DNA from: a phage
Assembly: GCA_012690745.1 (NCBI GenBank)
Contig: GCA_012690745.1_4086.2
Reading direction: 5' to 3' (one strand)
Length of the DNA stretch: 64,000 bases
Shown here in pieces: positions 11,408-39,386 of this stretch (position 1 is its first letter; every line of letters starts with the position of its first letter). The position numbers and the translations under genes were made by a program. The notes below the pieces were generated by a model. The model was not told where the DNA came from. It did no database searches and saw only the letters and a program-made list of their open reading frames with translations.

Positions 11408-11444
11408 ATTTCCCTCCTTTATTCATTATACTATATTTAATACA

Positions 11445-11473
11445 AAAAGAAATGCCAGTATCAAGTACTGGCA
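11445..11473 (-). terminator. intrinsic terminator
   Basis: GCCAGTA-N5-TACTGGC hairpin plus T-run. Confidence 0.55.
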
Positions 11474-11478
11474 TAATA

Positions 11479-12657
11479 TTATCGGTTAAATTTAAAATCT
11501 GTTATGTGTGTCCATGTATGATTTAATGGGGTACTCATTGGTGTAAAGCCAGCAGGGTCTGACAAAGCTGTACCACGTGCGTACATAAATTGATTGCCAG
11601 TACAATCCATTATAGCATAAGAACGTGTTGCTGTACCACATTTGAATCCAACTGCACTACTTGGGGTTGGTAATACTTCAAATATAGGTGCATTTGAACC
11701 ACCACCCCCATCTTTTGTTCCAGATATGTACAGAACTCCATTAGTATCAATGATTAAGTTAGTCCAATATGCTTGTTCTCGACCAGCATAAAAATATGTT
11801 AAATCCCCGGGTACAAATGGTAACGTACCTTTATATAGTGTAGTATTAACATCCACTGGTGCTCCAGATACACCCCATGAACTCATATAGTTTCTCCCAC
11901 TTGCGTAGAATGTAGTTCCTTTACCGTAAAGTATTAATGTTGCTTGACTTGTTCGCATTGCATTATATTCAAACTCAGGATCATCAGTAGCGTCCTTAAA
12001 AATCTGTGTCCATGTTGTTATATTACCAGTAGTCGTAACACCCATTTGATAATAATAATTATCACCAGTAGCATAGAATTCTTTAGGGCCAGTTTGTACA
12101 ATTGCATTCCCATTAGTTAACCAAAAATCTAATGTATTAGTCTTGATCTTGGTTGGTGTGTAATTCGCCACGGTATTTCCTTTTCCGAAATAACCATTAG
12201 CGTTATTTCCATGACCCCATAAATCACCATTAGTTGTGCGTAGGAATAATGTACCAGTATTGAATCCAACTTTTTCTATAGTACTTATGTCAATACCAAC
12301 AGTCGTGTACTTCGTTGTAAAATCTTGAAAAGTACTCCAATAATTAGATGAACCATTAAACATGGTTTGTCTACCAGTGTACTTCACTTTATTATCGTTA
12401 GTGATAAGTAATGTCCCCCACACTGACGCGAACATTAACTTAACATTTTCCATAACAAAGTATGGCTTACCGTATGCTGACGCGGTAGTGTTTAAACCTA
12501 ATAGTTGTCCATCATTACTACAACCCCATACTTCGCCGTTATCCAAAAGCATCAACATAGTAGGTTTGCCGGATGATACATCCAAAAAGAAATCTTTTGG
12601 TGTTGGTACGCCCGGTGCTTCATTTCCATAATTCAACATTCTTCCAAAAGGTAACAT
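11479..12657 (-). CDS. MLPF-tag family protein (divergent body)
   Basis: ORF track; MLPFGRMLNYGN; body more divergent than neighbours. Confidence 0.65.
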   Translation of the reverse strand: MLPFGRMLNYGNEAPGVPTPKDFFLDVSSGKPTMLMLLDNGEVWGCSNDGQLLGLNTTASAYGKPYFVMENVKLMFASVWGTLLITNDNKVKYTGRQTMFNGSSNYWSTFQDFTTKYTTVGIDISTIEKVGFNTGTLFLRTTNGDLWGHGNNANGYFGKGNTVANYTPTKIKTNTLDFWLTNGNAIVQTGPKEFYATGDNYYYQMGVTTTGNITTWTQIFKDATDDPEFEYNAMRTSQATLILYGKGTTFYASGRNYMSSWGVSGAPVDVNTTLYKGTLPFVPGDLTYFYAGREQAYWTNLIIDTNGVLYISGTKDGGGGSNAPIFEVLPTPSSAVGFKCGTATRSYAIMDCTGNQFMYARGTALSDPAGFTPMSTPLNHTWTHITDFKFNR

Positions 12658-12693
12658 AGTTCCTCCTTTATCATTATACTATATTTAATACAA

Positions 12694-12721
12694 ATAAGAA
12701 AGCCAGTATCAAGTACTGGCA
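12694..12721 (-). terminator. intrinsic terminator
   Basis: GCCAGTA-N5-TACTGGC hairpin plus T-run. Confidence 0.55.
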
Positions 12722-12726
12722 TCGTA

Positions 12727-13836
12727 TTACTTGGGTAATGGAATTGTGGTCCATCTATTTGCGGCAACGTCACCTGGTACATATGTAGGACTACCACTTA
12801 CAGCAATAGTTTCATTACCATCATATACAACACTGAAGTTTGTGCACGTATACAACGCTGCGGCATCTGGATTGTAATTTTCAAGTGTTAGTGTATTGGT
12901 GAACAAATTCAATGCAGTAGTTGAGCCGTTTTTACCATATGCACCTGTAGTATATATCTTTCCTTCTGTTGTTGAGTACATATTAACATATGACCCAGAT
13001 GATGATTTAGCAATTTTATCTATCTTGCTATCTATTGTTTTAGAGTTAAATTGAAATGGATATACCTGTACGTTAGTATCTAAACCATTTCCCAGTTCCC
13101 CATTTAACTGCCACCCTGTGTGGTACATTCCCGCATTTGTATATGCAAGCGTACTATACGCATTACCACCCATTATTTTAGTGCCAGATAATTTTAAACC
13201 AAACGATGTCCACTTACCAGTTTCATTTCCTATGGAACCATAAGCACTTGTACCACACGCACGAAGCTCGCCATTTGACGTTAGAAGCACTGTATTATTA
13301 ACGTTACCAAATATATCAATAACCTGATTAGTGCCATTATTCAGTACTGAAGTAAAAGTACTCTGTGAGTAAGTACTACCTGAACCAACAGAACCATTTG
13401 TGTTCATACCTCTTCCATATACAATTTTACCATCAGCACTAACATAGTGCATTGAATCAAAACCAATGGATATCATTTTAATATCAGATATATCTGGAAA
13501 TGAAGAAGTTACATCTACTCCACCTAGTGGAATTGTATTATTTCCTAAACCTAATGAGACATTAGTTCCGTGCATTATAAATTTATCTTCTTTAAAATAT
13601 AAAATATTATATCCACCAGCCCATGCATTATTAACGCCATTTGTAATCAGTACCCATTTATTTTGTGTAGTAGTTCCAGTAATATTTAACTGTTGATAGT
13701 TATTGATTCCACAACCATATAGCGATCCATCACCATATAGTACATATAAATTATCATATCCTGCAATAACTTTCTTTATTTTTTTGGGTACAGGTGCTAC
13801 ATTCCCATACTTTAACATTCTTCCAAAAGGTAACAT
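12727..13836 (-). CDS. RCC1-like beta-propeller repeat protein (MLPF-tag family)
   Basis: ORF track; MLPFGRMLKYGN; GELGNG/LGLGNN motifs. Confidence 0.7.
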   Translation of the reverse strand: MLPFGRMLKYGNVAPVPKKIKKVIAGYDNLYVLYGDGSLYGCGINNYQQLNITGTTTQNKWVLITNGVNNAWAGGYNILYFKEDKFIMHGTNVSLGLGNNTIPLGGVDVTSSFPDISDIKMISIGFDSMHYVSADGKIVYGRGMNTNGSVGSGSTYSQSTFTSVLNNGTNQVIDIFGNVNNTVLLTSNGELRACGTSAYGSIGNETGKWTSFGLKLSGTKIMGGNAYSTLAYTNAGMYHTGWQLNGELGNGLDTNVQVYPFQFNSKTIDSKIDKIAKSSSGSYVNMYSTTEGKIYTTGAYGKNGSTTALNLFTNTLTLENYNPDAAALYTCTNFSVVYDGNETIAVSGSPTYVPGDVAANRWTTIPLPK

Positions 13837-13874
13837 TATTTTCTCCTTTATTCATTATACTATATTTAATACAA

Positions 13875-13902
13875 AAAGAAATGCCAGTATCAAGTACTGG
13901 CC
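13875..13902 (-). terminator. intrinsic terminator
   Basis: GCCAGTA-N5-TACTGGC hairpin plus T-run. Confidence 0.55.
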
Positions 13903-13907
13903 TATAT

Positions 13908-15044
13908 TTAAATTATTGTTGGTAATGGTAATGGTATAAATTCATCACTCGATGGCAAACCATATAACGTAGTTGCATTTCCAGAATAATACCATCCCGT
14001 TGAATCTTGCACTATAGATAGATATGCTAACGATGCCGCCTTTGTTATATCATTAAACCCGTGTGGTACTTCTTTAAATGCAGATGAATATTCAACACCA
14101 GGATCACCAGAAGATAGTGTATTGTTAGTACCAGCATAATATAAAGTATTGCCATCTGTGCTTATAGCAAAAGAAAGAACAGAGTTATTCATATCACTCC
14201 ACAAATCCCTAAACCTGCCTCTATATCCGGTTAATTCTGTATACGAATATACGTTTGTGGTATTTGAAGAAGAATTACCTAGTTGATAATTTCTATTTTG
14301 ACCTGCTATAACATATCTAGTGATACCATTAGTATCATAATATAATATACCAGAGTTTAATGTTGACATACCAACTGCACATTCGGATGCAAATTCGGGA
14401 GCAGAGTACAAATTATAAGAAGTTAAATTTGTGCTAGTACCCAATGCTCCAGTATTGCTTATACCACAGCGGTAGTAACCACCAGTAGTACTAGAATATA
14501 TAGTACCAGATAGAGAAGTGTAGAATTTTGAAACATTTGATGCAACTAATACAGCATTAACTTTGCTTGTTGAACCACCAAATGATTGGTTATTATCATA
14601 TCCTTTAGCATATAATCTATTATCATTTGTAAGTAATCCTACACAATAATAAGTTATTTTCATTTCACGAACTGTGCTTAGATTCACTGCACTAAATTGT
14701 GTCGTAACATCTTTCCATGTAACAACTTTAGAACTTGTCGAACCACCAGATTCAAACCATTCATCACCACAGTATAAAATTTTATTATCTACAGTTAATA
14801 CAACGCATACTAAATTACTAGCACAAGCAAACTTAACATCATCTCTAACTTTAGTCCACTCGGTTACATTCACTATAGTATCAGTTCCTATACCTAATTT
14901 GCCATACGCATTATTACCACGCACCCATAATTCATTATCCTCGGTTATTAGTAATAATGAATTAGCACCTGCAACAATATCACGTATTTTTAGTTTATCT
15001 GGTGCTACGTTCCCATAATTCATCATTCTTGCAAAAGGTAACAT
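13908..15044 (-). CDS. RCC1-like beta-propeller repeat protein (MLPF-tag family)
   Basis: ORF track; MLPFARMMNYGN; first gene of the minus-strand array. Confidence 0.7.
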   Translation of the reverse strand: MLPFARMMNYGNVAPDKLKIRDIVAGANSLLLITEDNELWVRGNNAYGKLGIGTDTIVNVTEWTKVRDDVKFACASNLVCVVLTVDNKILYCGDEWFESGGSTSSKVVTWKDVTTQFSAVNLSTVREMKITYYCVGLLTNDNRLYAKGYDNNQSFGGSTSKVNAVLVASNVSKFYTSLSGTIYSSTTGGYYRCGISNTGALGTSTNLTSYNLYSAPEFASECAVGMSTLNSGILYYDTNGITRYVIAGQNRNYQLGNSSSNTTNVYSYTELTGYRGRFRDLWSDMNNSVLSFAISTDGNTLYYAGTNNTLSSGDPGVEYSSAFKEVPHGFNDITKAASLAYLSIVQDSTGWYYSGNATTLYGLPSSDEFIPLPLPTII

Positions 15045-15093
15045 ATATCCCTCCTTTATTCATTATATCATATTTACCTCCTAACGAAAACCC

Positions 15094-15122
15094 TTGACAT
15101 TCTTTCAGTACTGGTGTACTAT
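15094..15122 (+). promoter_or_regulatory. sigma70-type promoter for array 2
   Basis: TTGACA (15094-15099), 17-bp spacer, TACTAT; SD AAGGAG before ATG 15148. Confidence 0.55.
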
Positions 15123-15147
15123 AGAAGGAATATAAGGAGAACTACAC

Positions 15148-15375
15148 ATGACAAATACTCTTAAGTACTACCTGAATACTCTAAATGAACTAGAGTACGG
15201 TGAGTTTCTCGCAGATAGTTCGTGGCTAATTGAGCTAAAAAATTATAATAGTCCAGGATGCACCCTTATGATGAACAATGCAATTGATACCCTCATAGTA
15301 AGCATATTGCACAGCAACATCTGCGGGGATAGCAATAAACAATTATCAAAAATCTTAATACTGCTATCTATATGA
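15148..15375 (+). CDS. small protein, array-2 family (divergent)
   Basis: ORF track; first gene after promoter. Confidence 0.55.
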   Translation: MTNTLKYYLNTLNELEYGEFLADSSWLIELKNYNSPGCTLMMNNAIDTLIVSILHSNICGDSNKQLSKILILLSI

Positions 15376-15575
15376 ACATTGAACAGTACTACATCGATGC
15401 ACTACCAACAAAAGGTCTACGAGAAAGCCTAGAGTATACACAAAATAATTTTATACAATTCAAACATTGTCCTAAACTCTTGAACTCGTACAGGAATAAT
15501 AAAATAAGAAATGCTGTACAAGGGGTAGAAAGTATGCAATACTATTACATCCTAACCCTTTTAATCGAGCACTAA
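15372..15575 (+). CDS. small protein, array-2 family
   Basis: ORF track; ATGA stop/start overlap. Confidence 0.55.
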   Translation: MNIEQYYIDALPTKGLRESLEYTQNNFIQFKHCPKLLNSYRNNKIRNAVQGVESMQYYYILTLLIEH

Positions 15576-15576
15576 T

Positions 15577-15786
15577 ATGAATACTGAACATAAAGAATTC
15601 TACACCAAATACCTTAGCAACGAAGAACAATTGTTTCTAAGGAGTGTATCACCTTTAAGTACCAATACTCACTTCGGTAGAGATTGCTTTAATAATTGTA
15701 TACGTAGTACTCTAGAAGCAATCGAATGCAATAACAAAAATATTATGTACTCAGGTTTAATAGGACTAATCTACTTATATGAATAA
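15577..15786 (+). CDS. small protein, array-2 family
   Basis: ORF track; MNTEHKEFY N-term; near-duplicate of 18958..19167. Confidence 0.6.
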   Translation: MNTEHKEFYTKYLSNEEQLFLRSVSPLSTNTHFGRDCFNNCIRSTLEAIECNNKNIMYSGLIGLIYLYE

Positions 15787-15973
15787 TCATAAAGATTTCT
15801 ATTGTAGTAAACTACACAAGCAAGAACAGCTATCATTCTCTTTAGCACGACCTATGAGAAAGAATAATCTGTATTATAATTACGATTTCAGGATAGAGAC
15901 ACGTGATGCAATAGAACATACGTTCCCTGCAACTAAGTACCGCTCTATCCTGAACCTCATCTTTAAGTTCTAA
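15779..15973 (+). CDS. small protein, array-2 family
   Basis: ORF track; MNNHKDFY N-term. Confidence 0.6.
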   Translation: MNNHKDFYCSKLHKQEQLSFSLARPMRKNNLYYNYDFRIETRDAIEHTFPATKYRSILNLIFKF

Positions 15974-15983
15974 AAGGTGCTAT

Positions 15984-16193
15984 ATGAAAACTACAAACAT
16001 TCATCAGTACTACATAGATATTCTCCCTAAAGATGTACAGTTCATACTTAAACAAGAATTCAGTACTTTAAAAAAACTAAAAAGAACCGCACCTTCAGCA
16101 ATCATCCAGCACCAAAAAAATGTCGTGCGTAATATACTACAAGGTACACCAGGGACCGAGTACTTTAATATAGTAAGGCTAATTACATTATAA
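15984..16193 (+). CDS. small protein, array-2 family
   Basis: ORF track. Confidence 0.55.
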   Translation: MKTTNIHQYYIDILPKDVQFILKQEFSTLKKLKRTAPSAIIQHQKNVVRNILQGTPGTEYFNIVRLITL

Positions 16194-16378
16194 TGAATCA
16201 TATAAGCTACTACTACCAACAACTATCCGACAGAGACAAGTACAGTCACAACTCTCATGTGTGGTACTACAAACGCGGCAGTATAAGAGACAAACAACAT
16301 TACTTCTGTGTTTCTATTAAAGAAGCACTTACAACTAAGTACACGTACCGAGCAGTACTTAAACTTATTGAAATGTAA
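16193..16378 (+). CDS. small protein, array-2 family
   Basis: ORF track. Confidence 0.55.
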   Translation: MNHISYYYQQLSDRDKYSHNSHVWYYKRGSIRDKQHYFCVSIKEALTTKYTYRAVLKLIEM

Positions 16379-16385
16379 GGAAGAC

Positions 16386-16574
16386 ATGAACACTTTTGAG
16401 TACTACTTCAATAAACTAAGCTCCATAGAACAACAGATGCATAACTCATATATTAAGCACTATCAATCATCTGTACCTGAAATTAAAAACATATCGATTG
16501 AGGTTATCACTGACAGGGTACTGTCATCGGAACGTTATATGTATATTGATGTACTGAAACTAATCTCTATATAA
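16386..16574 (+). CDS. small protein, array-2 family
   Basis: ORF track 16308..16574 trimmed to MNTFEYYF ATG. Confidence 0.55.
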   Translation: MNTFEYYFNKLSSIEQQMHNSYIKHYQSSVPEIKNISIEVITDRVLSSERYMYIDVLKLISI

Positions 16575-16582
16575 GGAATAAA

Positions 16583-16765
16583 ATGAACATAGAATTCTAT
16601 TTAACTAAACTACAACACGCCGAAAGATTCAACTTCAATAAGTTCAATATTTTCTACAATTGCGGGAACAAAAAAGATAAACACACCTTCCTATATGTCG
16701 TCACAAGAGATGCACAAAACGAAAAGTACACATACAGAGAAGTAATGAAACTAATCTCTATATAA
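16583..16765 (+). CDS. small protein, array-2 family
   Basis: ORF track; C-term MKLISI like neighbour. Confidence 0.55.
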   Translation: MNIEFYLTKLQHAERFNFNKFNIFYNCGNKKDKHTFLYVVTRDAQNEKYTYREVMKLISI

Positions 16766-16773
16766 GGAATACT

Positions 16774-16953
16774 ATGCAACAATTCTATATAGAACGTATA
16801 ACCATAAAAGACCGTTTCATGTACGACACATTCGTTGATTACTACAAACTAGGAACAAAAAGTACTAAAAATATTAATCTCAATAGCTGCATTTATGCTG
16901 TACTAACACAAGATAATCCCTACAGGGAAATCCTCGCCCTGGCATCTATATAA
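16774..16953 (+). CDS. small protein, array-2 family (59 aa)
   Basis: manual ORF MQQFYIERI...LALASI, just under the track length cutoff. Confidence 0.45.
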   Translation: MQQFYIERITIKDRFMYDTFVDYYKLGTKSTKNINLNSCIYAVLTQDNPYREILALASI

Positions 16954-16963
16954 AGGAAACCAA

Positions 16964-17635
16964 ATGAAACTTAATGCACACAGCAAACAATACCTTAAGC
17001 ACTTTAAGTACCTCAATAGTATTCAGGCAGAATCAGTTACATCTGCATATACGTATCACCCGAATGTACTAAAGAAACGAAATAAAAAGGAAAAATCCAG
17101 TACAAATGGAGTTAACGTATCAAAGAACCTTGAATTGTACATGAAGAAAAATAATATAGCTGTTCATTATATGAATATCTATAATACTGATTTAAAAGTA
17201 TTGAGTACTAATACGAGCACAAAGGTACTAAAGAACGCATCCTTCATCATCAATATGCAGTTGGATAATACCCCGTGCACTTTAATGCTATACTTCGGGA
17301 ATACATACTTCTTCGGGAATTGTAACACCTCCCACGATGTCAATACAGCACAATTCCAAATGGGTGGCATATACTCTACTGATGCAGAAAAAGTACACGA
17401 GAATATGCACTTCTGGCAAGCACAACGTACAGAAGAAACTGATACAGTACTGCAATTCCTCAAAGAACTAGAACACAAAGAACTACAGGAAGAAGAACTA
17501 TTCATGTACAGTACTGTAATCGATAATCCAGTACTCTATAAAAACGCGTACAATCTGACAAAACATGTACAGGAAATTATCAGTACTAATAAGAAAATGC
17601 ATCACCTCATTACGTATATTACAAACTATGTATAA
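16964..17635 (+). CDS. hypothetical protein (223 aa) embedded in array 2
   Basis: ORF track; contains EEELFMYSTVID, resembling the array-4 motif. Confidence 0.55.
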   Translation: MKLNAHSKQYLKHFKYLNSIQAESVTSAYTYHPNVLKKRNKKEKSSTNGVNVSKNLELYMKKNNIAVHYMNIYNTDLKVLSTNTSTKVLKNASFIINMQLDNTPCTLMLYFGNTYFFGNCNTSHDVNTAQFQMGGIYSTDAEKVHENMHFWQAQRTEETDTVLQFLKELEHKELQEEELFMYSTVIDNPVLYKNAYNLTKHVQEIISTNKKMHHLITYITNYV

Positions 17636-17810
17636 AGAATACTATATCTCTAAACTACCCGTGCAGCAAAAATACTTTGCTGCATACAAAGTTCTTCTCA
17701 TAACTCGTGCCGCTCGATCTAACTACATGAATAGCGTAAAACGTGCTATAGAAAATGATGATACAATGAACCAGTACTATAACATTTTACTCCTAATATA
17801 TAAGTACTAA
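17628..17810 (+). CDS. small protein, array-2 family
   Basis: ORF track trimmed to MYKEYYISKLP; C-term LLLIYKY. Confidence 0.6.
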   Translation: MYKEYYISKLPVQQKYFAAYKVLLITRAARSNYMNSVKRAIENDDTMNQYYNILLLIYKY

Positions 17811-17820
17811 AGAGAACAAC

Positions 17821-18003
17821 ATGCACAAAGAATACTACAGGGATAAAATCCCTATGCATCTCCAGCACCATATACCAACAGAACCAATAGGCATAAAAGA
17901 TCACGCAAAGATAATGTTCCAACAATGTACTAAGTACACGCTCATATACGATGATAATCCATATATGCTGTACTACGTAGTAATGCTAACATTCAGGTAC
18001 TAA
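17821..18003 (+). CDS. small protein, array-2 family
   Basis: MHKEYY...MLTFRY. Confidence 0.65.
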   Translation: MHKEYYRDKIPMHLQHHIPTEPIGIKDHAKIMFQQCTKYTLIYDDNPYMLYYVVMLTFRY

Positions 18004-18004
18004 T

Positions 18005-18196
18005 ATGAATAACCACAAAGAATACTACATAGAGAAACTCCCAATGTATCTCCAACACCTTCTACCAACAGAACCATTGGGTATAGAAAAAAACTACGAA
18101 AAAGACTACTTCATTCAGTGCACTAAATCCTCGATATATATTGAAGACTATAATCGAGTACTGTATCACATCCTTTTACTAATATATAGGTACTAA
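18005..18196 (+). CDS. small protein, array-2 family
   Basis: MNNHKEYY...LLLIYRY. Confidence 0.65.
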   Translation: MNNHKEYYIEKLPMYLQHLLPTEPLGIEKNYEKDYFIQCTKSSIYIEDYNRVLYHILLLIYRY

Positions 18197-18197
18197 T

Positions 18198-18380
18198 ATG
18201 CACAAAGAATACTACACACAATTTCTCCCCAGCATTTTTGAACACTACGCCAGATACAAAGTCCCTATGGATAACGATTTGGCAGTACTGGGATTCAATA
18301 ACTGCATAGAACGAAGTATAGAAAATAGTAGTAGTTATGACCAGCTATATAACACTATCCTACTTATATTCAGGTACTAA
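18198..18380 (+). CDS. small protein, array-2 family
   Basis: MHKEYY...ILLIFRY. Confidence 0.65.
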   Translation: MHKEYYTQFLPSIFEHYARYKVPMDNDLAVLGFNNCIERSIENSSSYDQLYNTILLIFRY

Positions 18381-18381
18381 C

Positions 18382-18570
18382 ATGCATAAAGAATACTACA
18401 CAAAATATTTCCCAATGTACCTCAGAACTAATCTATTAGATAAACCTCGCGGTATCAATGCACAAAACGATAAAGTGTACTTTACTATGTGCACTAAAGC
18501 ATGTATACTAGATCATGACAGCTACCATCGAGTACTGTATCATACCCTGTACCTAGCTTTCGTATTCTAA
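18382..18570 (+). CDS. small protein, array-2 family
   Basis: ORF track trimmed to MHKEYYTKYFP. Confidence 0.6.
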   Translation: MHKEYYTKYFPMYLRTNLLDKPRGINAQNDKVYFTMCTKACILDHDSYHRVLYHTLYLAFVF

Positions 18571-18579
18571 GAGAACAAT

Positions 18580-18765
18580 ATGCATAAAGAATTCTACTTA
18601 AGCCATCTCGATCTAAACTCCCAAATGCTTATACCACAAATCCCAATAGATATCAAGGATAAGAAAAATACCGAACAATTCATTTACCATACACAGTGTG
18701 CGATCACCCCAAATTACATTCCATATGAATTGTACTACATTATCGCCCTAATATATAGGTACTAA
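18580..18765 (+). CDS. small protein, array-2 family
   Basis: MHKEFY...IALIYRY. Confidence 0.65.
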   Translation: MHKEFYLSHLDLNSQMLIPQIPIDIKDKKNTEQFIYHTQCAITPNYIPYELYYIIALIYRY

Positions 18766-18766
18766 T

Positions 18767-18952
18767 ATGCATAGAGAATACTACACACAATTTGTTAAAG
18801 GGAACTACAAATGTGCCGTACCCAGAACCCCTTTAAATTCTCATGACCCAAGTACTATATTCTTGTTTAATGACGCAATACGTACAGTACTCAATACTAA
18901 AGATGAAGATGTGCAGTACGTATTCTTACTATTACTTATATACAGACACTAA
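18767..18952 (+). CDS. small protein, array-2 family
   Basis: MHREYY...LLLIYRH. Confidence 0.65.
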   Translation: MHREYYTQFVKGNYKCAVPRTPLNSHDPSTIFLFNDAIRTVLNTKDEDVQYVFLLLLIYRH

Positions 18953-20589: not shown

Positions 20590-20609
20590 CCACCAGCACA
20601 AGCTGGTGG
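20590..20609. other. palindrome carrying Chi octamer on both strands
   Basis: CCACCAGC-ACAA-GCTGGTGG. Confidence 0.5.
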
Positions 20610-20796
20610 ATTCCCTCTAACAGTATTCAGTACTACATGATGGTCTTCATCCTCCTAGGGTAACATAGTGAGGGCTATGATGGCAGTACTGAATACTCCC
20701 TTTCAAAAGATAGATCTATGGTATAGTACTGACGGATTTTGGGTGTAGTTACCCTGGATGGATTTTGGGCGTAGATATGTCTAGCCCTCCAGAAGT

Positions 20797-20959
20797 CTGG
20801 AAGTAAAGATGGCTATCCATCTAGACGGCTAAACGGCTAGATTTCTGGATGGCTAGACGTTTGGACGGCTAAACGGCTAGATGGTTACACGTCTGGAAGT
20901 ATAGACGGCTAGACGGCTAAACGGCTAGATGGTTACACGTCTGGAAGTATAGACGGCTA
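20797..20959. repeat. iteron-like direct repeat cluster
   Basis: 48-bp unit beginning GACGGCTAAACGGCTAGATGG tandemly repeated at 20864-20911 and 20912-20959; partial copies 20797-20842. Confidence 0.6.
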
Positions 20960-21581
20960 AATCAAAATTTTATTTTGTTTTTTCCAATAGTTCCCCTACC
21001 GCGTCGGGGTAAATTCCCCAGCAGTATCGAACGTTAGATTTTTCTGAATCTGGAATCATTATCTTATAAACTGGGGGCAATGTCAACGGCCTGGACGGAT
21101 ATTTTTAAAATTTTTTTCAGTACTGAATTTTGGGCGTAACTATGCACCCGGTGGGCTTGAGTCTTTCTCGACTTGATGGAACTATTATACAGTACTGAAA
21201 AAATAAAGCAATACCCTGGAAGCAAAAAAGTTTTAATTAATTTGCTTGCTATCCTGGGCCGGACTATGGTACTATATTTCAGTACTGAGAAAGTGCGTTT
21301 ACCTGCTAGGGTGCGGGAGTGTATCCTTTTTTTATATCTTGAATTTTGGGCGTAATTCCGCACCCTCTGGGGTTTCCGCTTTCTCACGTCTATGTAGTAA
21401 TTATACGCTTTTTCAGGATCAAGTCAATACCTAAAAACAAAATAATTGAAAATAATTTAACGCGTTTAAACGGCCTGTAAAGCCCTGGAATGATTGGAAT
21501 GGTGCAAATGTATAGCTTATGTGTATTAATGCGTTAGAATGCGTCTGAGGCCGTTTTATGGGGTGTAGTAGTGATTTGGTT

Positions 21582-21672
21582 GATTCAGTACTGAATAATA
21601 GTACTCCTATATAGAAAGATAGTTCCCCTGGATTGATTCAGTACTGAATAATAGTACTCCTATATAGAAAGA
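21582..21672. repeat. 38-bp direct repeat x2
   Basis: GATTCAGTACTGAATAATAGTACTCCTATATAGAAAGA at 21582-21619 and 21635-21672. Confidence 0.6.
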
Positions 21673-21703
21673 AAACTATTTTAAAAGTATTTGTAGAAAG
21701 TAC

Positions 21704-21731
21704 TTGCACCGTACTGATAAAAGCGTATAAT
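21704..21731 (+). promoter_or_regulatory. early-type sigma70 promoter
   Basis: TTGCAC-16-TATAAT then GTTTTACATC and 5'UTR hairpin. Confidence 0.5.
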
Positions 21732-21786
21732 GTTTTACATCGAGAGCGGGAACACTTCCCGCTACACTTTAAGAGAGATTAATACG

Positions 21787-22149
21787 ATGGCAACTCAAAT
21801 CACCAAAATTATTGCTAACCTGGTTAACTTCCGCGACGAGATGAAAGATCTTCCGGCGGCGACGGTTAAAACTCACATTGACGCATACCGCGAACTGATT
21901 AAAATGCTGCCGCTTAAGCGTGAACAATACGCCGCTACCGTGATGCTTGATGCGATGATCCATAAGATGATCGCCAGTGATTTGACGATGGTTTATCAGT
22001 ATATGGGCGAAAATTTCGCGGTGTGTAGTAAGCCAGTACCAGGGATGGCAACAACTGAGGAATTGCACGGCTTAAACTTAAAACAAGATGCATGGGATAA
22101 TATGCCTCGTTTCCTGGTATGGGCTGACAGTGGCAAAATTTACAAATAA
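21787..22149 (+). CDS. hypothetical protein (120 aa)
   Basis: ORF track 21730..22149 trimmed to MATQITK; the upstream ATG lies in the promoter -10. Confidence 0.6.
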   Translation: MATQITKIIANLVNFRDEMKDLPAATVKTHIDAYRELIKMLPLKREQYAATVMLDAMIHKMIASDLTMVYQYMGENFAVCSKPVPGMATTEELHGLNLKQDAWDNMPRFLVWADSGKIYK

Positions 22150-22163
22150 GTTTAATAAAGTAC

Positions 22164-22191
22164 TTGCAAACTATGTTTAATGGCGTATAAT
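22164..22191 (+). promoter_or_regulatory. early-type sigma70 promoter
   Basis: TTGCAA-16-TATAAT. Confidence 0.5.
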
Positions 22192-22244
22192 GTTTTACAT
22201 CAGGTGGGGAATAGTTCCCCACTATATAAGAGGATTAAAAAAAA

Positions 22245-22484
22245 ATGGCTAAATCAAAAATGTTCTTAGGTCACAAAAACAAAACTCATTGGAATGTAAG
22301 CCTGTGGATTAATAACGATGAGGGATTGTATCGGTTGGCCCTGGACTTTATTGCCGCCAATACTAATCGCAATGATGCGGCCCGTCATATGATGTTATTT
22401 TTAGAACAGACTGGACAAGATAAAACACCGGACGGATTCAAATATAGCACTACTGCGATCCGTGCGGCGATGGTTGGAATGTAA
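22245..22484 (+). CDS. hypothetical protein
   Basis: ORF track. Confidence 0.6.
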   Translation: MAKSKMFLGHKNKTHWNVSLWINNDEGLYRLALDFIAANTNRNDAARHMMLFLEQTGQDKTPDGFKYSTTAIRAAMVGM

Positions 22485-22570
22485 TAGAATTTATTTAAAG
22501 TACTATCATTTTTTTGCGATAGTACTTTATAATAGTGTTTTATTCATACACCAACGATAAGGGCAACAGC

Positions 22571-22837
22571 ATGAATATTAAGTATTTTGCGACGCGTGAA
22601 CAAGCTCGGATCGCCGCACGCCAGGACGGGGCAACGTTTAAAGATATGGGAGCGGGATCGGCAAGTGGTAAACGTTGGGCCATTGTAAAGCGTAGTACGG
22701 CCAGATCATTACAGTACTGGTTAGCGGCCTTAAAAAGTCCCGATAGTGTATCGCGTCGAGTGGTAGAAATAAAGCTCGACCGAAAGGGCAACCGCGTGAC
22801 CGTGTACCGTACTAAAAAGATTGCAGTACTTGAATAA
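22571..22837 (+). CDS. hypothetical protein; paralogue of 35052..35447
   Basis: trimmed to MNIKYFATREQARIAAR; shared FATREQARI...TFKDMG...DRKGNRVTVY. Confidence 0.6.
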   Translation: MNIKYFATREQARIAARQDGATFKDMGAGSASGKRWAIVKRSTARSLQYWLAALKSPDSVSRRVVEIKLDRKGNRVTVYRTKKIAVLE

Positions 22838-22844
22838 AAAGTAC

Positions 22845-22872
22845 TTGCAAACTATGTTTAAAGGCGTATAAT
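22845..22872 (+). promoter_or_regulatory. early-type sigma70 promoter
   Basis: TTGCAA-16-TATAAT. Confidence 0.5.
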
Positions 22873-22924
22873 GTTTTACATCGAGAGCGGGAACTCTTCC
22901 CGCCTATAACCTGGAGTAATAAAA

Positions 22925-23155
22925 ATGACTAATATGTATATGACTGAAGTTAAAACCGTAAAAGATACTACCACGAATAAAACTACTTACTTACAGCGGA
23001 TCTGTGGTGTATGGCAACGTATCAGCAAATCAAAGTACTTTAAATTAACATCATATGCAAACCGTTCTGATTCATTCAGTACTGAAATAAAAGGTAATAA
23101 AGTACACCAATACGGCACTTATTATTATTACAGCCTGGACGCGATTGCAGTATAA
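22925..23155 (+). CDS. hypothetical protein
   Basis: ORF track. Confidence 0.55.
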   Translation: MTNMYMTEVKTVKDTTTNKTTYLQRICGVWQRISKSKYFKLTSYANRSDSFSTEIKGNKVHQYGTYYYYSLDAIAV

Positions 23156-23185
23156 GCAGTTTACAAATCTTTACAATTGCCGGTA

Positions 23186-23214
23186 TTGACTTATTTTGTC
23201 AGTACTGGCATAAT
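23186..23214 (+). promoter_or_regulatory. sigma70-type promoter upstream of a structured noncoding element
   Basis: TTGACT-17-CATAAT. Confidence 0.45.
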
Positions 23215-23404
23215 GTATTCATTGGCAGATAAGCCGTAGCCCATAGGGTGCGGGAGTGTATCTATAGAAAAATTAGTTTAGTATAGTTACAATTGTGCAC
23301 CCGGTGGGTTAGCTGTTGTCATGGGGTATATTATGCCAGTACTTGATAATGCTGTCAATACTTTTTTTTACTATCCAGTACAGAAAACTATTTTTAAAAA
23401 GTAC

Positions 23405-23432
23405 TTGCAAACTATGTTTAAAGGCGTATAAT
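23405..23432 (+). promoter_or_regulatory. early-type sigma70 promoter
   Basis: TTGCAA-16-TATAAT. Confidence 0.5.
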
Positions 23433-23522
23433 GTTTTACATCAGGACGGGGAACGAAATAAGTAACTTCCCGTTAAGTAGCCCAGGAGTAAGGCACACGA
23501 AAAACTCCCCTGATAAAATAGT

Positions 23523-23550
23523 TTGACAAATGTTTTTAAAAGCGTATAAT
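23523..23550 (+). promoter_or_regulatory. early-type sigma70 promoter
   Basis: TTGACA-16-TATAAT. Confidence 0.5.
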
Positions 23551-23582
23551 ACTTACATCAACTACTGAATGAGGGTTATAAA

Positions 23583-24194
23583 ATGAAAACTATCACTACT
23601 ACTACTTTCGTTATGGATTTTTCTGAATTGAACGCAGAACAACAAACGTCAGCTATCGAACTGGTTCGGGAACGTGAAAAAAACTCAAACGACAATTATT
23701 TTTCTGAAAGTGAAATTGAATACTATAAAGAAACAGTACTACCGGAATATGGCATTAATGACGCTGAAATACAATTCAGTGGTTTTTGGTCCCAGGGTGA
23801 CGGTGCATCAATCAGTACTGACCACGTTGACGCAGTGAAGTTTTTACGCAAGGTTAGAGCGTTAACTAAGTATCGCTCAATCCGTCACCTGCTGAATGAA
23901 GATGAATTATCTATGAGGGTACAGCGTTCTCAATCCCGCTACTCACACGAAAACACTGTAAGCGGGTACATTGAATCGGGGTACACTGATTTAACAGCAA
24001 AACAGGAAGCGTTAGCCAATGAGCTTGAGGAATTGCTTACTGTTACTATTCGTGAATTATCTCGCAAGTTGTACCGTGATTTAGAGAATGCATATGAGGA
24101 TCAATTCACTACTGAGAACATCACGGCACTGATCGAGGGTAACGAGTATCAATTCAATGTTATTGATGGCGTAGTAGAATCAATCGCATATTAA
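23583..24194 (+). CDS. hypothetical protein (203 aa)
   Basis: ORF track; SD GAGGG. Confidence 0.65.
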   Translation: MKTITTTTFVMDFSELNAEQQTSAIELVREREKNSNDNYFSESEIEYYKETVLPEYGINDAEIQFSGFWSQGDGASISTDHVDAVKFLRKVRALTKYRSIRHLLNEDELSMRVQRSQSRYSHENTVSGYIESGYTDLTAKQEALANELEELLTVTIRELSRKLYRDLENAYEDQFTTENITALIEGNEYQFNVIDGVVESIAY

Positions 24195-24249
24195 TTTAGT
24201 ACTGAGATAATGGCGGGGAATGGTTCCCGCCTTTACTGAGGAATATCTA

Positions 24250-24537
24250 ATGAGCAAAGTAATTAGCTATACAGTATTAAGCAAGTCATTATCTATTAGC
24301 CAGTGCACTGATGGTTATTGGCTTTATGATGAATCGCGTGGCATGAATTTAGCTATGCGTGCAAAAACTGCTGAGGCGGCGTATCTTGAGGCACTGGAAT
24401 ACTACCAGGAACGATTAAAGGAAGTAGAAAACGATTATAATAACCTGAAAGCGAAAGTAGATCATTTCGTCGGGCAATTCGTTGACGATGACGAGGAAGA
24501 CGGGCACTACTGCGACCGTTGCGGATCTTACAGTTAA
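24250..24537 (+). CDS. hypothetical protein
   Basis: trimmed to MSKVISY; SD GAGGAA. Confidence 0.55.
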   Translation: MSKVISYTVLSKSLSISQCTDGYWLYDESRGMNLAMRAKTAEAAYLEALEYYQERLKEVENDYNNLKAKVDHFVGQFVDDDEEDGHYCDRCGSYS

Positions 24538-24554
24538 GTACTAAGGATTATCTA

Positions 24555-24761
24555 ATGAGTGATTTAATTGAACGTATCAAAGAGCTTGAAGAAAAAGAAT
24601 TACAGTTAATCGGATTGCGTAATAAAGTTTATTCAGAGCTTGGAGGCTTCATACAGGCTTGGGATAGTGGTGATCCTGATGCTTTACCTGCTAACCGCCA
24701 GGCGATGATCAATGATGTGAGAAGTGTCTTTGATTATGTTTTAAAAAGTACTGGACACTAA
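24555..24761 (+). CDS. hypothetical protein
   Basis: trimmed to MSDLIERIKELEE; SD AAGGA. Confidence 0.55.
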   Translation: MSDLIERIKELEEKELQLIGLRNKVYSELGGFIQAWDSGDPDALPANRQAMINDVRSVFDYVLKSTGH

Positions 24762-24779
24762 GCAATAAAGGCGTATAAT
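24752..24779 (+). promoter_or_regulatory. possible sigma70 promoter (weak -35)
   Basis: TGGACA-16-TATAAT. Confidence 0.35.
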
Positions 24780-24831
24780 ACTTTATATCGAGAGCGGGAA
24801 TAGTTCCCGCTACTAATGAGGAATACTACAA

Positions 24832-24996
24832 ATGAATACTTTTACCTTCGCTCAATTGAACGCCCTGGATGTATTGTCTGATGCTTTGCGGGATGCAACT
24901 GAAAGCGGTTTATTTGACAATGTTGACATTCACCCTGATGTAATTAATAATTTTTGTGATGCTATCGCAGAAGTACTGGAAGATCTAAAAAAATAA
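24832..24996 (+). CDS. small hypothetical protein (54 aa)
   Basis: manual ORF MNTFTFAQLNALD; follows promoter, hairpin and SD GAGGAA. Confidence 0.45.
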   Translation: MNTFTFAQLNALDVLSDALRDATESGLFDNVDIHPDVINNFCDAIAEVLEDLKK

Positions 24997-25006
24997 TAGA
25001 AAGTAC

Positions 25007-25034
25007 TTGCAATTAGTTTTTAGTACTGTATAAT
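25007..25034 (+). promoter_or_regulatory. early-type sigma70 promoter
   Basis: TTGCAA-16-TATAAT. Confidence 0.5.
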
Positions 25035-25084
25035 AGTTTACATCAAGGGGAGAAATGGTTCTCCCTGGTAATGAGGAAAATAAA

Positions 25085-25306
25085 ATGGCTAATATCACTA
25101 CTCTTTCCCAACTGGAAGCACTGGTTAAATCTATGCGGGAACATGCCGACAATATCGGCGTAAAAGATCCAGCCGTTTGCTTCTGCGACGAAATGAATGA
25201 TGATACACTGGTAATAGCAGAAGTACAAGATATTTCTAACTATTCATCGCGTTACACTGGCGGCGTAGCAAATAAAGGTGACTTCTGTTTATACCTTACC
25301 AAATAA
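25085..25306 (+). CDS. hypothetical protein
   Basis: trimmed to MANITTLSQ. Confidence 0.6.
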   Translation: MANITTLSQLEALVKSMREHADNIGVKDPAVCFCDEMNDDTLVIAEVQDISNYSSRYTGGVANKGDFCLYLTK

Positions 25307-25474
25307 CAACGCGGGGAGATAATAACTCCCCGTTACTTTTTCAGTACTGAATCATTTAATAGACGGATCTCGGCACCCTGTGGGTTAGTGACTGTATCGT
25401 CTTTATGTAGTAATTATGCCAGTACTGGATGCAGTTGTCAACAATTATTTTTCAAATACTTTTTATTAAAATAC

Positions 25475-25502
25475 TTGCTATTAGTTTTTAAACGCGTATA
25501 AT
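25475..25502 (+). promoter_or_regulatory. early-type sigma70 promoter
   Basis: TTGCTA-16-TATAAT. Confidence 0.45.
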
Positions 25503-25549
25503 GTTTTGCATAGGGGGAGCGGTTCCCCTGGTAACTAAGGAATAAGAAA

Positions 25550-29622: not shown

Positions 29623-29630
29623 AAAAGTGG

Positions 29631-29660
29631 TTGACTTCGGTCAGCCATTTTGCTATTATA
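29631..29660 (+). promoter_or_regulatory. repeated hairpin-promoter module, copy 1
   Basis: TGGTTGAC-TTCG-GTCAGCCA hairpin overlapping TTGACT-18-TATTAT. Confidence 0.45.
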
Positions 29661-29763
29661 TATTCATTGAGAGATAGCTCACTAGCCCACAGGGTGCAGG
29701 AGTGTATCTATTGTATAATGATTGAGTACAGAAAACTATTTTAAAGTATTTGATAAAAAGTAC

Positions 29764-29842: not shown

Positions 29843-30184
29843 ATGACTATTGCAATTGCTCAATCTAACTTTGAAAACGAAATCATCGCTCAGGCACTGC
29901 GTTTAAATGATGGTCGGGCCGAAATCAATTACGGTTTCAATAGTGGTGGATGTGAAAAATATCAGTACTTTGTAACGGCTGATGGCTGTGTCCTGGGTAT
30001 CAATACAGTTATTGTAAACATTCAGAAAATTAATTTCAATGATCCAGACGATAGCCAGTTTTACATCACGGGCGTAGACGTGAACTATGAGGATGACTCA
30101 CTAACTGATGATCACACTGGCGAGAAGTTAGAAAGTGCATACGGTGAAGATGATTATCAGTCCGGTCCAGAAGATTTCGAATAA
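29843..30184 (+). CDS. hypothetical acidic protein
   Basis: ORF track. Confidence 0.6.
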   Translation: MTIAIAQSNFENEIIAQALRLNDGRAEINYGFNSGGCEKYQYFVTADGCVLGINTVIVNIQKINFNDPDDSQFYITGVDVNYEDDSLTDDHTGEKLESAYGEDDYQSGPEDFE

Positions 30185-31309: not shown

Positions 31310-31314
31310 TCTAT

Positions 31315-31343
31315 TGACAAATTATGCCAGTACTGGCATAATA
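31315..31343 (+). promoter_or_regulatory. sigma70-type promoter
   Basis: TTGACA-17-CATAAT. Confidence 0.5.
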
Positions 31344-31638
31344 CTTACATCAAGACGAGAACGTCACTAACCCATAGGGTGCACAAATGTAACTATATAA
31401 TATCGATCAATAAATGATCAAAAAAGTACTGGATCAATTTAGCATAAGGCGTATAATTCTGATCAAATCTTGATCAAAGGCAATAAACGTAGTTGAAATT
31501 ATATAGAAAGTACAAAGGCGTTACCATTCGTGGTAATGCTGGGGAATATGTAGTATCATACGGTTTGAATAAAATCAGTACTAGTAGTATTATTGTAGCA
31601 TTACAGTACTATAGTATTTTTATAATGAGGTTAAAATA

Positions 31639-33654: not shown

Positions 33655-33672
33655 AAAGATTTAAAAAAGGGA

Positions 33673-33701
33673 TTGACTCCGGTCAGTCCCTTTGCTATTA
33701 T
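33673..33701 (+). promoter_or_regulatory. repeated hairpin-promoter module, copy 2
   Basis: GGGATTGAC-TCCG-GTCAGTCCC hairpin overlapping TTGACT-17-TATTAT. Confidence 0.45.
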
Positions 33702-33801
33702 ATATGCATAGAAACAATCTAACCCACAGGGTGCATAAATGTATCTATTATATGCTGGTGGCTAGTACTATCAAGTACTGAAAACTATTTTTAAAAAGTA
33801 C

Positions 33802-36957: not shown

Positions 36958-36975
36958 AAAAGATTAAAAAAGGGA

Positions 36976-37004
36976 TTGACTTCGGTCAGTCCCTTTGCTA
37001 TTAT
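36976..37004 (+). promoter_or_regulatory. repeated hairpin-promoter module, copy 3
   Basis: GGGATTGAC-TTCG-GTCAGTCCC hairpin overlapping TTGACT-17-TATTAT. Confidence 0.45.
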
Positions 37005-37098
37005 ATATTCATTGAGAGATAGCTCACTGACCCACAGGGTGCATAAATGTATCTATTATATAAGTATTCAGTACTGAAAACTATTTGATAAAAAGTAC

Positions 37099-39213: not shown

Positions 39214-39234
39214 CAAAAAAGAATAAAAAAGGGA

Positions 39235-39263
39235 TTGACTCTGGTCAGTCCCTTTGCTATTAT
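39235..39263 (+). promoter_or_regulatory. repeated hairpin-promoter module, copy 4
   Basis: GGGATTGAC-TCTG-GTCAGTCCC hairpin overlapping TTGACT-17-TATTAT. Confidence 0.45.
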
Positions 39264-39386
39264 ATACGCATAGACAAAAACTAGCCCACAGGGTGCAGAG
39301 AAGTATCTGTAAGATAGTTAATAACGGTGAGTAACTATCTGCTGGTGGATGTAATTCCAGTACTCAAAACTATTTCAAAAAAAGTA

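Follow-up and report, generated by a model that had tools for sequence, protein, structure and literature searches.

A Candidate Structured RNA Module with Its Own Promoter, Repeated in the Terminal Repeat of a Rak2-Like Jumbo Phage

The Early Region and Its Terminal Repeat

We analyzed a 64,000-nucleotide (nt) stretch of phage DNA (contig GCA_012690745.1_4086.2 of GenBank assembly GCA_012690745.1; the whole stretch is referred to here as the window) in which a short unit, consisting of a host-type promoter followed by about 50 nt predicted to fold as RNA, occurs ten times. The region is 93–97% identical to that of the Asteriusvirus jumbo coliphages Ecwhy_1, EC.P1, SHEFM2K, G17, PBECO4, and 121Q, and the source phage is evidently an Asteriusvirus-like jumbo phage within the Rak2-like group. 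For the related phages CBB and PA5oct, published work has concluded that phages of this kind rely on the host RNA polymerase and RpoD-type early promoters (PMC5259590, PMC7318152).

The terminal redundancy of G17 is about 20 kb (PMC6563267). Position 1 of the G17 record corresponds to window position 40717 and reads leftward along the early genes, so that the terminal repeat should occupy roughly 20.8–40.7 kb of the window. All ten units fall inside this inferred repeat, within which the genes are small, far apart, and each provided with its own promoter; outside it they are densely packed. Fourteen terminators are annotated in the 20 kb of G17. In Klebsiella phage Muenster, whose repeat was placed at 1–20030 by PhageTerm, nine units lie at 2364–18812 and none in the following 10 kb (20–30 kb). 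The terminal repeat of CBB is 22.5 kb (PMC5259590), and the unit loci of that phage are inside or adjoin it.

Anatomy and Distribution of the Unit

The consensus of the aligned units, read 5' to 3' on their own strand, begins with an A-tract, a −35 box TTGACW, a 17-nt spacer, and a −10 box that is CATAAT, TATTAT, or TATAAT, mostly with a TG extension. A nearly invariant YA, the predicted transcription start, stands 5–7 nt 3' of the −10 box. A first hairpin (H1) begins 1–2 nt after YA, with a stem of 3–5 base pairs (bp) and a purine-rich loop of 6–8 nt ending in AA. It is followed by the linker CUAR and an invariant 12-mer core, CCCAYAGGGUGC (CCC-AYA-GGGUGC), in which CCC and GGG are spaced by 3 or 4 nt. 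In the second hairpin (H2), GGGUG of the core pairs with a YRYYY arm 13–17 nt downstream, across an 8-nt purine-rich loop region. One stretch of the unit RNA, CUAACCCACAGGGUGC, is a possible target of a complementary oligonucleotide.

Among 76 units compared, the −35 box was TTGACT or TTGACA in 66 and the spacer was 17 nt in 54, and the distance from the −10 box to the core was fixed. These are evidently near-consensus sigma-70 promoters of the host type and, judged by sequence, the strongest promoters in the terminal repeat are those that precede the unit. In four of the ten window copies the −35 box lies inside a 12-bp G/C hairpin followed by Ts, forming a composite terminator/promoter; the other six are without it. 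The G17 annotators had placed ARNOLD terminators at positions equivalent to all four composite hairpins.

A covariance model (CM) search, as suggested by a first-pass annotation that had proposed small RNAs at four sites in this region, was made with filters off; the model was built from 14 seeds of equal length, and H1 and H2 were supplied as its structure. It found exactly ten full copies, six on the plus strand and four on the minus strand, all between 21129 and 39311. Everything else had E > 2, apart from an H2-only remnant at 21307–21326. The sequence recurrence reported in that annotation was also borne out. AGGGTGCGGGAGTGTATC is exact at 21308 and 23245 with a one-mismatch copy at 29691 (three matches against 0.02 expected), and GCACCCNNTGGG or its complement occurs ten times against 0.59 expected, a number reached in none of 100 shuffles. 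On the plus strand GCACCCNNTGGG lies at 21144, 21360, 23297, and 25373, the sites already annotated; its complement lies at 23240, 29686, 31371, 33723, 37031, and 39285, five of these being outside the annotated range.

The four minus-strand units lie toward the left end of the inferred repeat. That at 21129–21211 has a −35 box TTGCTT at 21211–21206, a −10 box TATAAT at 21189–21184, and its RNA module from 21176 to 21129 (H1 AGUC/GACU, then CCCACC and H2 GGGUG/CGCCC; 44.1 bits, E 5e-9), for which the minimum free energy (MFE) fold is H1 plus H2. It is directed toward the terminal-repeat boundary and has no open reading frame (ORF) downstream. The unit at 21345–21427 (−35 TTGACT 21427–21422; −10 TATAAT 21405–21400; module 21392 to 21345) is the weakest full copy, with a CCCCAGA spacer variant (22.1 bits, E 1.3e-3). 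It faces a decayed plus-strand half-unit at 21307–21334, in which the H2 hairpin alone (AGGGUGCG-GGAG-UGUAUCCU) is followed by T7. The half-unit matches model positions 26–45 (E 0.083), is terminator-like at 21308–21327, and folds at −8.7 kcal/mol. The third minus-strand unit, at 23282–23358 (−35 TTGACA 23358–23353; extended −10 CATAAT 23335–23330; module 23323 to 23282), has a degenerate H1 (25.4 bits, E 2e-4) and is the right member of a convergent pair. The fourth, at 25358–25441, has −35 TTGACA at 25441–25436, extended −10 CATAAT at 25418–25413, and its module from 25405 to 25358 (36.9 bits, E 3e-7).

On the plus strand, the left member of the convergent pair occupies 23186–23266, with −35 TTGACT at 23186–23191, an extended −10 box (TGgCATAAT, 23209–23214), and a module at 23220–23266 in which H1 is UGGC/GCCG (52.3 bits, E 5e-11). 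The composite unit at 29624–29712 (hairpin 29624–29651; −35 TTGACT 29631–29636; −10 TATTAT 29654–29659; module 29665–29712; 62.5 bits) is followed by a standard early promoter and the gene at 29843–30184. The unit at 31314–31397 (−35 TTGACA 31314–31319; extended −10 CATAAT 31337–31342; module 31350–31397; H1 GACG/CGUC; 33.8 bits) lies, together with the next promoter, in a stretch of about 320 bp (31310–31628) that phage G17 does not have, and which the comparison identifies as a cassette-like gain or loss. The remaining three units are composite: 33666–33749 (hairpin 33666–33693; −35 33673–33678; −10 33696–33701; module 33707–33749; 43.7 bits; Chi at 33754), 36969–37057 (hairpin 36969–36996; −35 36976–36981; −10 36999–37004; module 37010–37057), and 39228–39311 (hairpin 39228–39255; −35 39235–39240; −10 39258–39263; module 39269–39311; 37.2 bits; Chi at 39341). 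The second of these, at 63 bits, is the top match in the window and its MFE fold is H1 plus H2.

Strand and Extent of the Unit

The first-pass annotation had described plus-strand RNAs of about 150 nt that are delimited by the arms of a GGGTGC...GCACCC inverted repeat, start from promoters resembling the one at 23186, and end in a hairpin and T-run, a model that we now consider very unlikely. GGGTGC and GCACCC are one element on opposite strands. When reverse-complemented, the GCACCC sites can be aligned to the GGGTGC sites along some 90 nt, including an upstream TTGACW-N17-TATAAT-like promoter, and the true repeat unit is the ~50-nt module with its own promoter, on either strand. The motif ATTAT(A/G)C, taken to be the 3' end of a plus-strand RNA, corresponds to −10 boxes (TATAAT / TGGCATAAT) read from the opposite strand; they belong to minus-strand promoters, which the promoter scan called independently at 25441–25413, 23358–23330, and 21427–21400. 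An inverted repeat arises only where two units converge; seven of the ten window copies are solitary, and a single intact inverted-repeat element is present in the window. On the same ground a MITE-like element with terminal inverted repeats was rejected.

Site by site, the element reported at 23225–23385 is two convergent units, and that at 21240–21380 is one full minus-strand unit (21392–21345) facing the decayed plus-strand half (21307–21326). The sites at 21120–21180, listed as a partial match, and 25365–25445 are full units with minus-strand promoters and no plus-strand promoter. The strand had been misread at three of the four sites. Of the six plus-strand copies, the five at 29.7–39.3 kb, none of which has a GCACCC partner, had been missed. 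In favor of the earlier description, TTGACT-17-CATAAT with TG at 23186 is indeed promoter-like and a weak A/U-rich hairpin (about 23338–23362) and T8 run (23362–23369) follow, and a plus-strand RNA of about 150 nt ending at T8 is possible at 23186–23369. The inverted repeat and fold at 23338–23369, however, are the opposite strand of the −35 region of the minus-strand unit and its upstream A-tract, the T8 run being the A-tract itself (−35 at 23358–23353). The hairpin has fewer than three G-C pairs, hence the terminator scan did not call it; it could act as a weak terminator for the plus-strand unit. The general proposal of non-coding, promoter-associated, structured phage RNA candidates has held up, with the promoters, the absence of an ORF, and the comparative analysis in agreement.

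Conserved RNA Structure

H1 takes the form of at least 14 clearly different Watson–Crick stems at the same position, among them UGGC/GCCG, UGAG/CUCA, AGCA/UGCU, AGACA/UGUCU, UCCA/UGGA, GGAG/CUCC, GCC/GGC, GACG/CGUC, ACAAA/UUUGU, ACCAC/GUGGU, GCCA/UGGC, ACCG/CGGU, and AGUC/GACU, with the loops AGAUAA, GCGAAA, or AGAACAA. In the CM alignment, changes on both sides were found at four of four pairs (121 cells), and 93% of the H1 cells were paired, the overall figure being 94.8%, compared with 76% after shuffling and 36–53% in slid registers. The top four mutual-information column pairs of the whole alignment were exactly the H1 pairs. Covariation indicative of a pseudoknot or other long-range pairing was not found beyond H1 in this alignment. 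An alignment-free test anchored on the loop G[CA]GAAA gave the same picture, with 13 of 13 distinct flanks pairing at ±1 to ±3 compared with 43–57% with shuffled partners.

The 5' arm of H2 is invariant and its 3' arm keeps a fixed, gap-free register. In a MAFFT alignment not fitted to structure, 95.1% of H2 cells were paired versus 30–72% in slid registers, and there were 65 one-sided pair-preserving changes, all of them G:U to or from G:C or U:A to or from U:G. The numbers of transitions and transversions were 65:17 in the H2 arm, 113:74 in the loop, and 56:162 in the 3' flank, ratios that are indicative only as the cells are non-independent. G:U or U:G wobbles made up 53% of H2 cells in the CM alignment. 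As wobble accounts for more than half of the cells, the helix would be possible only in the sense RNA, and not in antisense RNA or duplex DNA. We conclude from these comparisons that H1 and H2 are both conserved, strand-specific RNA structures.

From the raw MAFFT alignment, RNAalifold predicted no stem other than the invariant one between CCC and GGG, which represents an alternative helix, H2a (RCCC-AYA-GGGU). H2a and H2 are mutually exclusive and near-isoenergetic, with medians of −3.9 and −4.4 kcal/mol, respectively. Both arms of H2a are invariant, which puts it beyond the reach of covariation; the variation of 3 or 4 nt in the CCC-GGG spacing is what a hairpin loop would tolerate.

Several points weigh against this structural case. 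The H1 pair counts come from the CM alignment, which is itself fitted to the model. H2 shows no double compensatory change, its 5' arm being invariant, and transition-biased drift among related copies could have contributed to the H2 pattern, since 60% of the changes in the loop were also transitions. The copies are a mixture of paralogues and orthologues and the cell counts are not independent events. Folding of single sequences gave z-scores from −0.7 to −2.0, which are unremarkable. A generic test for any hairpin showed a modest excess (63% compared with 37% in shuffles). Given the weak single-sequence folding and the modest hairpin count, the structural case rests on the position-specific comparative evidence.

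The comparative pattern also bears on the idea that the conserved element acts as DNA only, with CCCAYAGGGTGC (a partly palindromic CCC-N3-GGG) as an operator just downstream of the start site, or with the cassettes as recombination substrates, like the promoter-early stem-loop (PeSL) cassettes of other phages, conserved through gene shuffling. In favor of this, the spacing between promoter and core does not vary, one cassette has been gained or lost relative to G17, and the composite terminator/promoter layout is PeSL-like (PMC2839356, PMC4122927). A DNA element would not, however, be expected to keep the H1 structure while its sequence changes completely, or to retain G:U-compatible bases in the H2 arm, which are meaningless in duplex DNA. 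The 3- or 4-nt CCC-GGG spacing suits a hairpin loop better than protein–DNA half-sites, and the core is invariant across very divergent phages with different flanking genes. We therefore consider a role confined to DNA highly improbable.

Genomic Contexts and Predicted Transcripts

The six co-directional window units lie 3' of the end of an upstream gene, and a standard early promoter and gene follow 60–190 nt later. No ORF was present within 450 nt downstream in 30 of the 76 units; otherwise the next ORF was 43–464 nt away, usually behind a second promoter. The downstream genes belong to many unrelated families, on which account a gene-specific cis-regulator was rejected, and Pfam was uninformative for the neighbors.

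Other units are antisense to genes; about 45 nt past their core lies a bidirectional terminator (25332–25312 in the window). The hairpin at 25311–25333 was terminator-like on both strands in the scan, and was also seen in the fold of 25405–25300; it ends the plus-strand gene 25055–25306 and, on the minus strand, would end the unit RNA from 25405. The prediction here is an RNA of about 100 nt, from 25405 to about 25303, and no minus-strand ORF of ≥20 amino acids (aa) was found between 25405 and 25300. In Muenster, antisense units are beside author-annotated terminators at 4951–4978 and 11927–11953, and RaK2 and several uncultivated relatives likewise have antisense copies with a terminator. RNAs of 95–105 nt without an ORF are predicted for the copies with such a terminator, and of about 95–110 nt for antisense copies stopped by either a terminator or a facing copy. 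Micro-ORFs after H2 (2–9 codons) were dismissed on inspection, as they had no Shine–Dalgarno (SD) sequence and were not conserved. By sequence, then, the units have what a stand-alone small RNA (sRNA) gene has in promoter and lack of ORF, and the 25405–25358 unit and its antisense relatives also have a terminator-defined 3' end, unlike the six co-directional copies. The earlier expectation of discrete small RNAs consequently holds, as a prediction, where a terminator follows the copy, and not for co-directional copies with no terminator before the next gene.

Transcripts of the co-directional copies would continue into the next early gene and give its mRNA an additional 5' leader, and the module might act solely in that capacity, as a put-like processive antiterminator through the many terminators of the repeat or, by virtue of H1, as a 5' stabilizer of early mRNAs, with the gene-less copies decayed or incidental. 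Consistent with this, the transcripts, made from strong early promoters, begin with two hairpins, six of the ten window copies run into early genes without an intervening terminator, the region is rich in terminators (the 14 of G17's 20 kb), and its standard early promoters also put a hairpin at the 5' end. However, the 30 units without a downstream ORF and the unrelatedness of the downstream genes are difficult to accommodate, and antisense copies, each with a good bidirectional terminator within about 45 nt, are conserved in phages of both E. coli and Klebsiella, an arrangement hard to reconcile with antitermination or mRNA stabilization. A stabilizer would have no need of an invariant 12-mer, and inspection of the linker and core revealed no boxA-like sequence. 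We regard a purely cis-acting leader as rather unlikely.

In at least 10 phages, the core-to-core spacing of convergent pairs is quantized, with values of 51, 62, or 69 nt; in the window pair there are 51 nt from the start of GGGTGC to the start of GCACCC. The pair upstream of the gene for a 203-aa protein (23583–24194) is syntenic between the window phage and Muenster. This protein had no Pfam match and is 43% identical to Muenster gp006, annotated there as a YeeU-like antitoxin. In pairs with 62- or 69-nt spacing, a Fur-box-like palindrome with the core AATGATAATCATT is located exactly between the two H2 hairpins (loci L001 8050–8136, L011 1248–1334, L021 306–392, L071 3083–3168, L089 6060–6139, and L100, Muenster, 2413–2449). 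The best of these palindromes matches 14 of 19 positions of the Fur-box consensus GATAATGATAATCATTATC. The window pair, with its 51-nt spacing, has no such central palindrome.

These arrangements raise the possibility that function resides in two units that face each other, or in one that faces the end of a gene: promoters 113 bp apart would give complementary RNAs (double-stranded RNA, a substrate of RNase III) or colliding polymerases as an insulator or switch near the genome end, with solitary copies as spare halves. The quantized spacing, the synteny with Muenster, the palindrome at the exact middle of many pairs, and the long hairpins into which read-through transcripts fold (z −4.1 and −5.5) are all in keeping with such a device. 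On the other hand, most units are solitary (7 of 10 in the window and about 48 of 76 overall), the window pair is without the palindrome, and the H2 wobble pattern indicates that selection acts on the module as it folds by itself, a fold that would be lost to the long hairpin of the pair. A convergent-transcription device is, in our judgment, distinctly unlikely.

Relatives and Database Searches

A scan of IMG/VR for CCCANNGGGTGCNNNNNTGTA found clusters of copies in RaK2, 121Q, GAP32, CBB, and several uncultivated genomes of about 350 kb, the copies of each genome being in one stretch of about 20–25 kb and, in CBB, also in the second copy of the terminal repeat. The CM identified 100 copies in Rak2-like loci from IMG/VR. 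BLAST of one 58-nt module returned 63 phage records, all of jumbo phages, whose hosts belong to seven genera (Escherichia, Klebsiella, Erwinia, Salmonella, Yersinia, Cronobacter, and Serratia). In these searches the cassette recurred in all the Rak2-like relatives.

A host or prophage counterpart was looked for and rejected: in 185,579 bacterial and archaeal species genomes the commonest variant with 19 specified bases matched one chance, unrelated terminator, and the full unit found nothing in 5,426 E. coli genomes. Rfam 15 gave no match in the window at gathering thresholds and, at E ≤ 5 over 20000–40500, three unrelated weak matches, none on a unit; ARAGORN found no tRNA or tmRNA in the window. 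In the searchable literature just three papers, all unrelated, contain the 12-mer, and only in passing; the motif as such is not mentioned. Together, these data indicate that the structured RNA module with its own promoter is real and strongly conserved, with about ten copies in each terminal repeat of Rak2-like jumbo phages, and it is apparently undescribed.

Proposed Role of the Module

The explanation that we favor, and to which we give about an even chance as a whole, is that every copy serves by itself as an early transcription cassette of Rak2-like (Asteriusvirus) jumbo phages and acts at the RNA level. The host sigma-70 RNA polymerase would start from the near-consensus promoter at the conserved YA, and the first ~50–55 nt would fold into H1, CUAR, the invariant core, and H2, together forming the active part of the RNA. 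That the product is an RNA with its active part in the first ~55 nt is suggested by the promoter, the start site, the strand-specific folds, the invariant core, and the gene-less terminated copies. The cassettes are confined to the ~20-kb direct terminal repeat, which holds independently promoted small early genes and, in the window phage, ten cassettes. Because of this confinement to the early-gene repeat, the RNA should be made in quantity right after DNA entry, and it is probably an abundant very-early (pre-early) RNA. Copies antisense to genes would be stopped about 45 nt on by bidirectional terminators or by a facing copy.

A hairpin at the 5' terminus is known to protect E. coli RNAs from 5'-end-dependent decay, and H1, with only 2–3 unpaired nt before it, may protect the end of the unit RNA in this manner. 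The invariant 12-mer, which can also form H2a, would be bound by a conserved factor of either the phage or the host; covarying stems combined with a strictly invariant 12-mer are the usual signature of sites read by a trans-acting factor. As there are ten strong promoters per repeat, and twenty per virion genome, we speculate that the role is stoichiometric, with the many copies recruiting or titrating the conserved factor in trans during host takeover.

Against this explanation must be set that six of the ten window copies are without a terminator before the next promoter and gene, an arrangement that fits a leader as well as an sRNA. Furthermore, read-through in convergent pairs would bury the core in a long hairpin (z −4.1 and −5.5), and the searchable literature holds no expression data or transcriptome for any Rak2-like enterobacterial phage (Asteriusvirus, Alcyoneusvirus).

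A more specific form of the proposal, which is speculative and which we would not expect to be correct, is that the module represents a new class of host-takeover RNA: a pre-early, 5'-protected decoy in 10–20 copies, whose core toggles between two near-isoenergetic hairpins and captures a factor conserved throughout the Enterobacterales (an RNA-binding protein, a defense sensor, or RNA polymerase), its output being tuned in some phages by a Fur-type roadblock between convergent copies. A sponge of the CsrB type was considered and rejected, with GGA in the H2 loop of only 32 of the 76 units (42%) and differing H1 loops.

Host takeover by Rak2-like jumbo phages, which have 350-kb genomes reliant on the host RNA polymerase, is little understood, and the non-coding RNAs of lytic phages are largely unexplored. 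The motif is comparatively well supported and sharply defined by about 100 examples with covarying stems and an invariant 12-mer from phages of seven host genera, which makes it a candidate new Rfam family, and it can be used as a marker of the terminal-repeat early region in jumbo-phage assemblies. If a host factor is sequestered, the module would represent an RNA-based takeover or anti-defense mechanism; if it is merely a leader, the promoter and terminator map of Rak2-like genomes is still revised.

Comparison with Known Phage Elements

The PeSL cassettes of T4-like phages (Arbiol et al. 2010, PMC2839356; Comeau et al. 2014, PMC4122927) resemble the units in that both are short cassettes repeated between genes in the variable early part of a large myovirus genome and have a strong sigma-70 early promoter with an upstream A/T tract, and one unit is likewise a cassette-like indel between close relatives. 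The G/C stem-loop that overlaps the PeSL promoter and ends upstream transcription is found in four of the ten window units and is absent from the other six. However, PeSLs end in the SD sequence and start codon of the next gene, whereas the units encode a structured RNA of ~50 nt that is conserved and contains the invariant 12-mer; moreover, 40% of the units have no downstream gene, many are antisense to genes, and they are confined to the terminal repeat. As the defining SD sequence and start codon are replaced by a non-coding module, the unit is not a PeSL. Closer analogues are the standard early cassettes of the window, a second repeat family seen at 21694–25511 and onward, in which AGTACTTGCA-N16-TATAAT is followed by a 5' G/C hairpin (GCGGGAAnnnUUCCCGC), an SD sequence, and ATG. 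At least seven copies occur within 4 kb, with a 16-nt spacer, a perfect −10 box, and no TG extension, unlike the unit promoters.

Two highly expressed non-coding RNAs, defined by RNA-seq, have been described in the long terminal repeat of PA5oct, a Rak2-related jumbo phage (PMC7318152). A link to the units was rejected, as the 39-kb terminal repeat of this more distant Pseudomonas phage contained neither the motif nor a CM match.

The put RNAs of HK022 and the nut sites of lambdoid phages are processive antitermination elements, promoter-proximal untranslated RNAs at the start of early transcripts that are present twice per genome. The likeness of the units to them is limited to the layout of a promoter-proximal, two-hairpin RNA (H1 and H2), in which the purine-rich H1 loop, partly GNRA-like (GCGAAA, GAGAAA), recalls boxB. 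They differ in that no boxA was seen, there are ten copies per repeat, and many face away from genes, with efficient-looking terminators at once after them.

The sar RNA of the P22 sar/ant system is a phage small RNA from convergent promoters and a single antisense regulator of one gene. A short non-coding transcript from a strong promoter is predicted for the units as well, but both members of a unit pair carry the same module and most units are unpaired.

Repeat Boundary and Other Repeated Sequences

About 20 tandem 8-bp repeats (TAGACGGC / TAAACGGC / TAGATGGT ...) lie at 20806–20970, where the ~20-kb repeat mapped from G17 should end, and could represent a boundary, packaging, or iteron-like element. 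Between this array and an inverted pair of Chi sites are two decayed minus-strand remnants resembling the H2 arm region (gattttgggtgtagttaccctgg and gattttgggcgtag, 20737–20785).

Chi (GCTGGTGG) occurs nine times on the plus strand and three times on the minus strand of the window. Eight of the nine plus-strand sites are at 20.6–39.3 kb: 20590–20609 (the inverted pair, CCACCAGCacaaGCTGGTGG, beside the presumed repeat boundary), 27020, 31028, 32489, 33754, 36137, 37544, and 39341; the ninth is at 1857. Those at 33754 and 39341 are directly 3' of units. This distribution suggests that the genome ends may be protected from RecBCD.

The palindrome AGTACT occurs 262 times in the whole window, compared with about 22 expected from base composition and 89 for the next palindromic hexamer, and is densest at 16–40 kb. 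It adjoins the −35 box of the standard early promoters (AAAGTACTTGCA), is present in the spacer of the unit promoter (CAGTACTGGCATAAT), and lies 4–27 nt 3' of H2 in most units; it could be an operator or an RNA-processing site.

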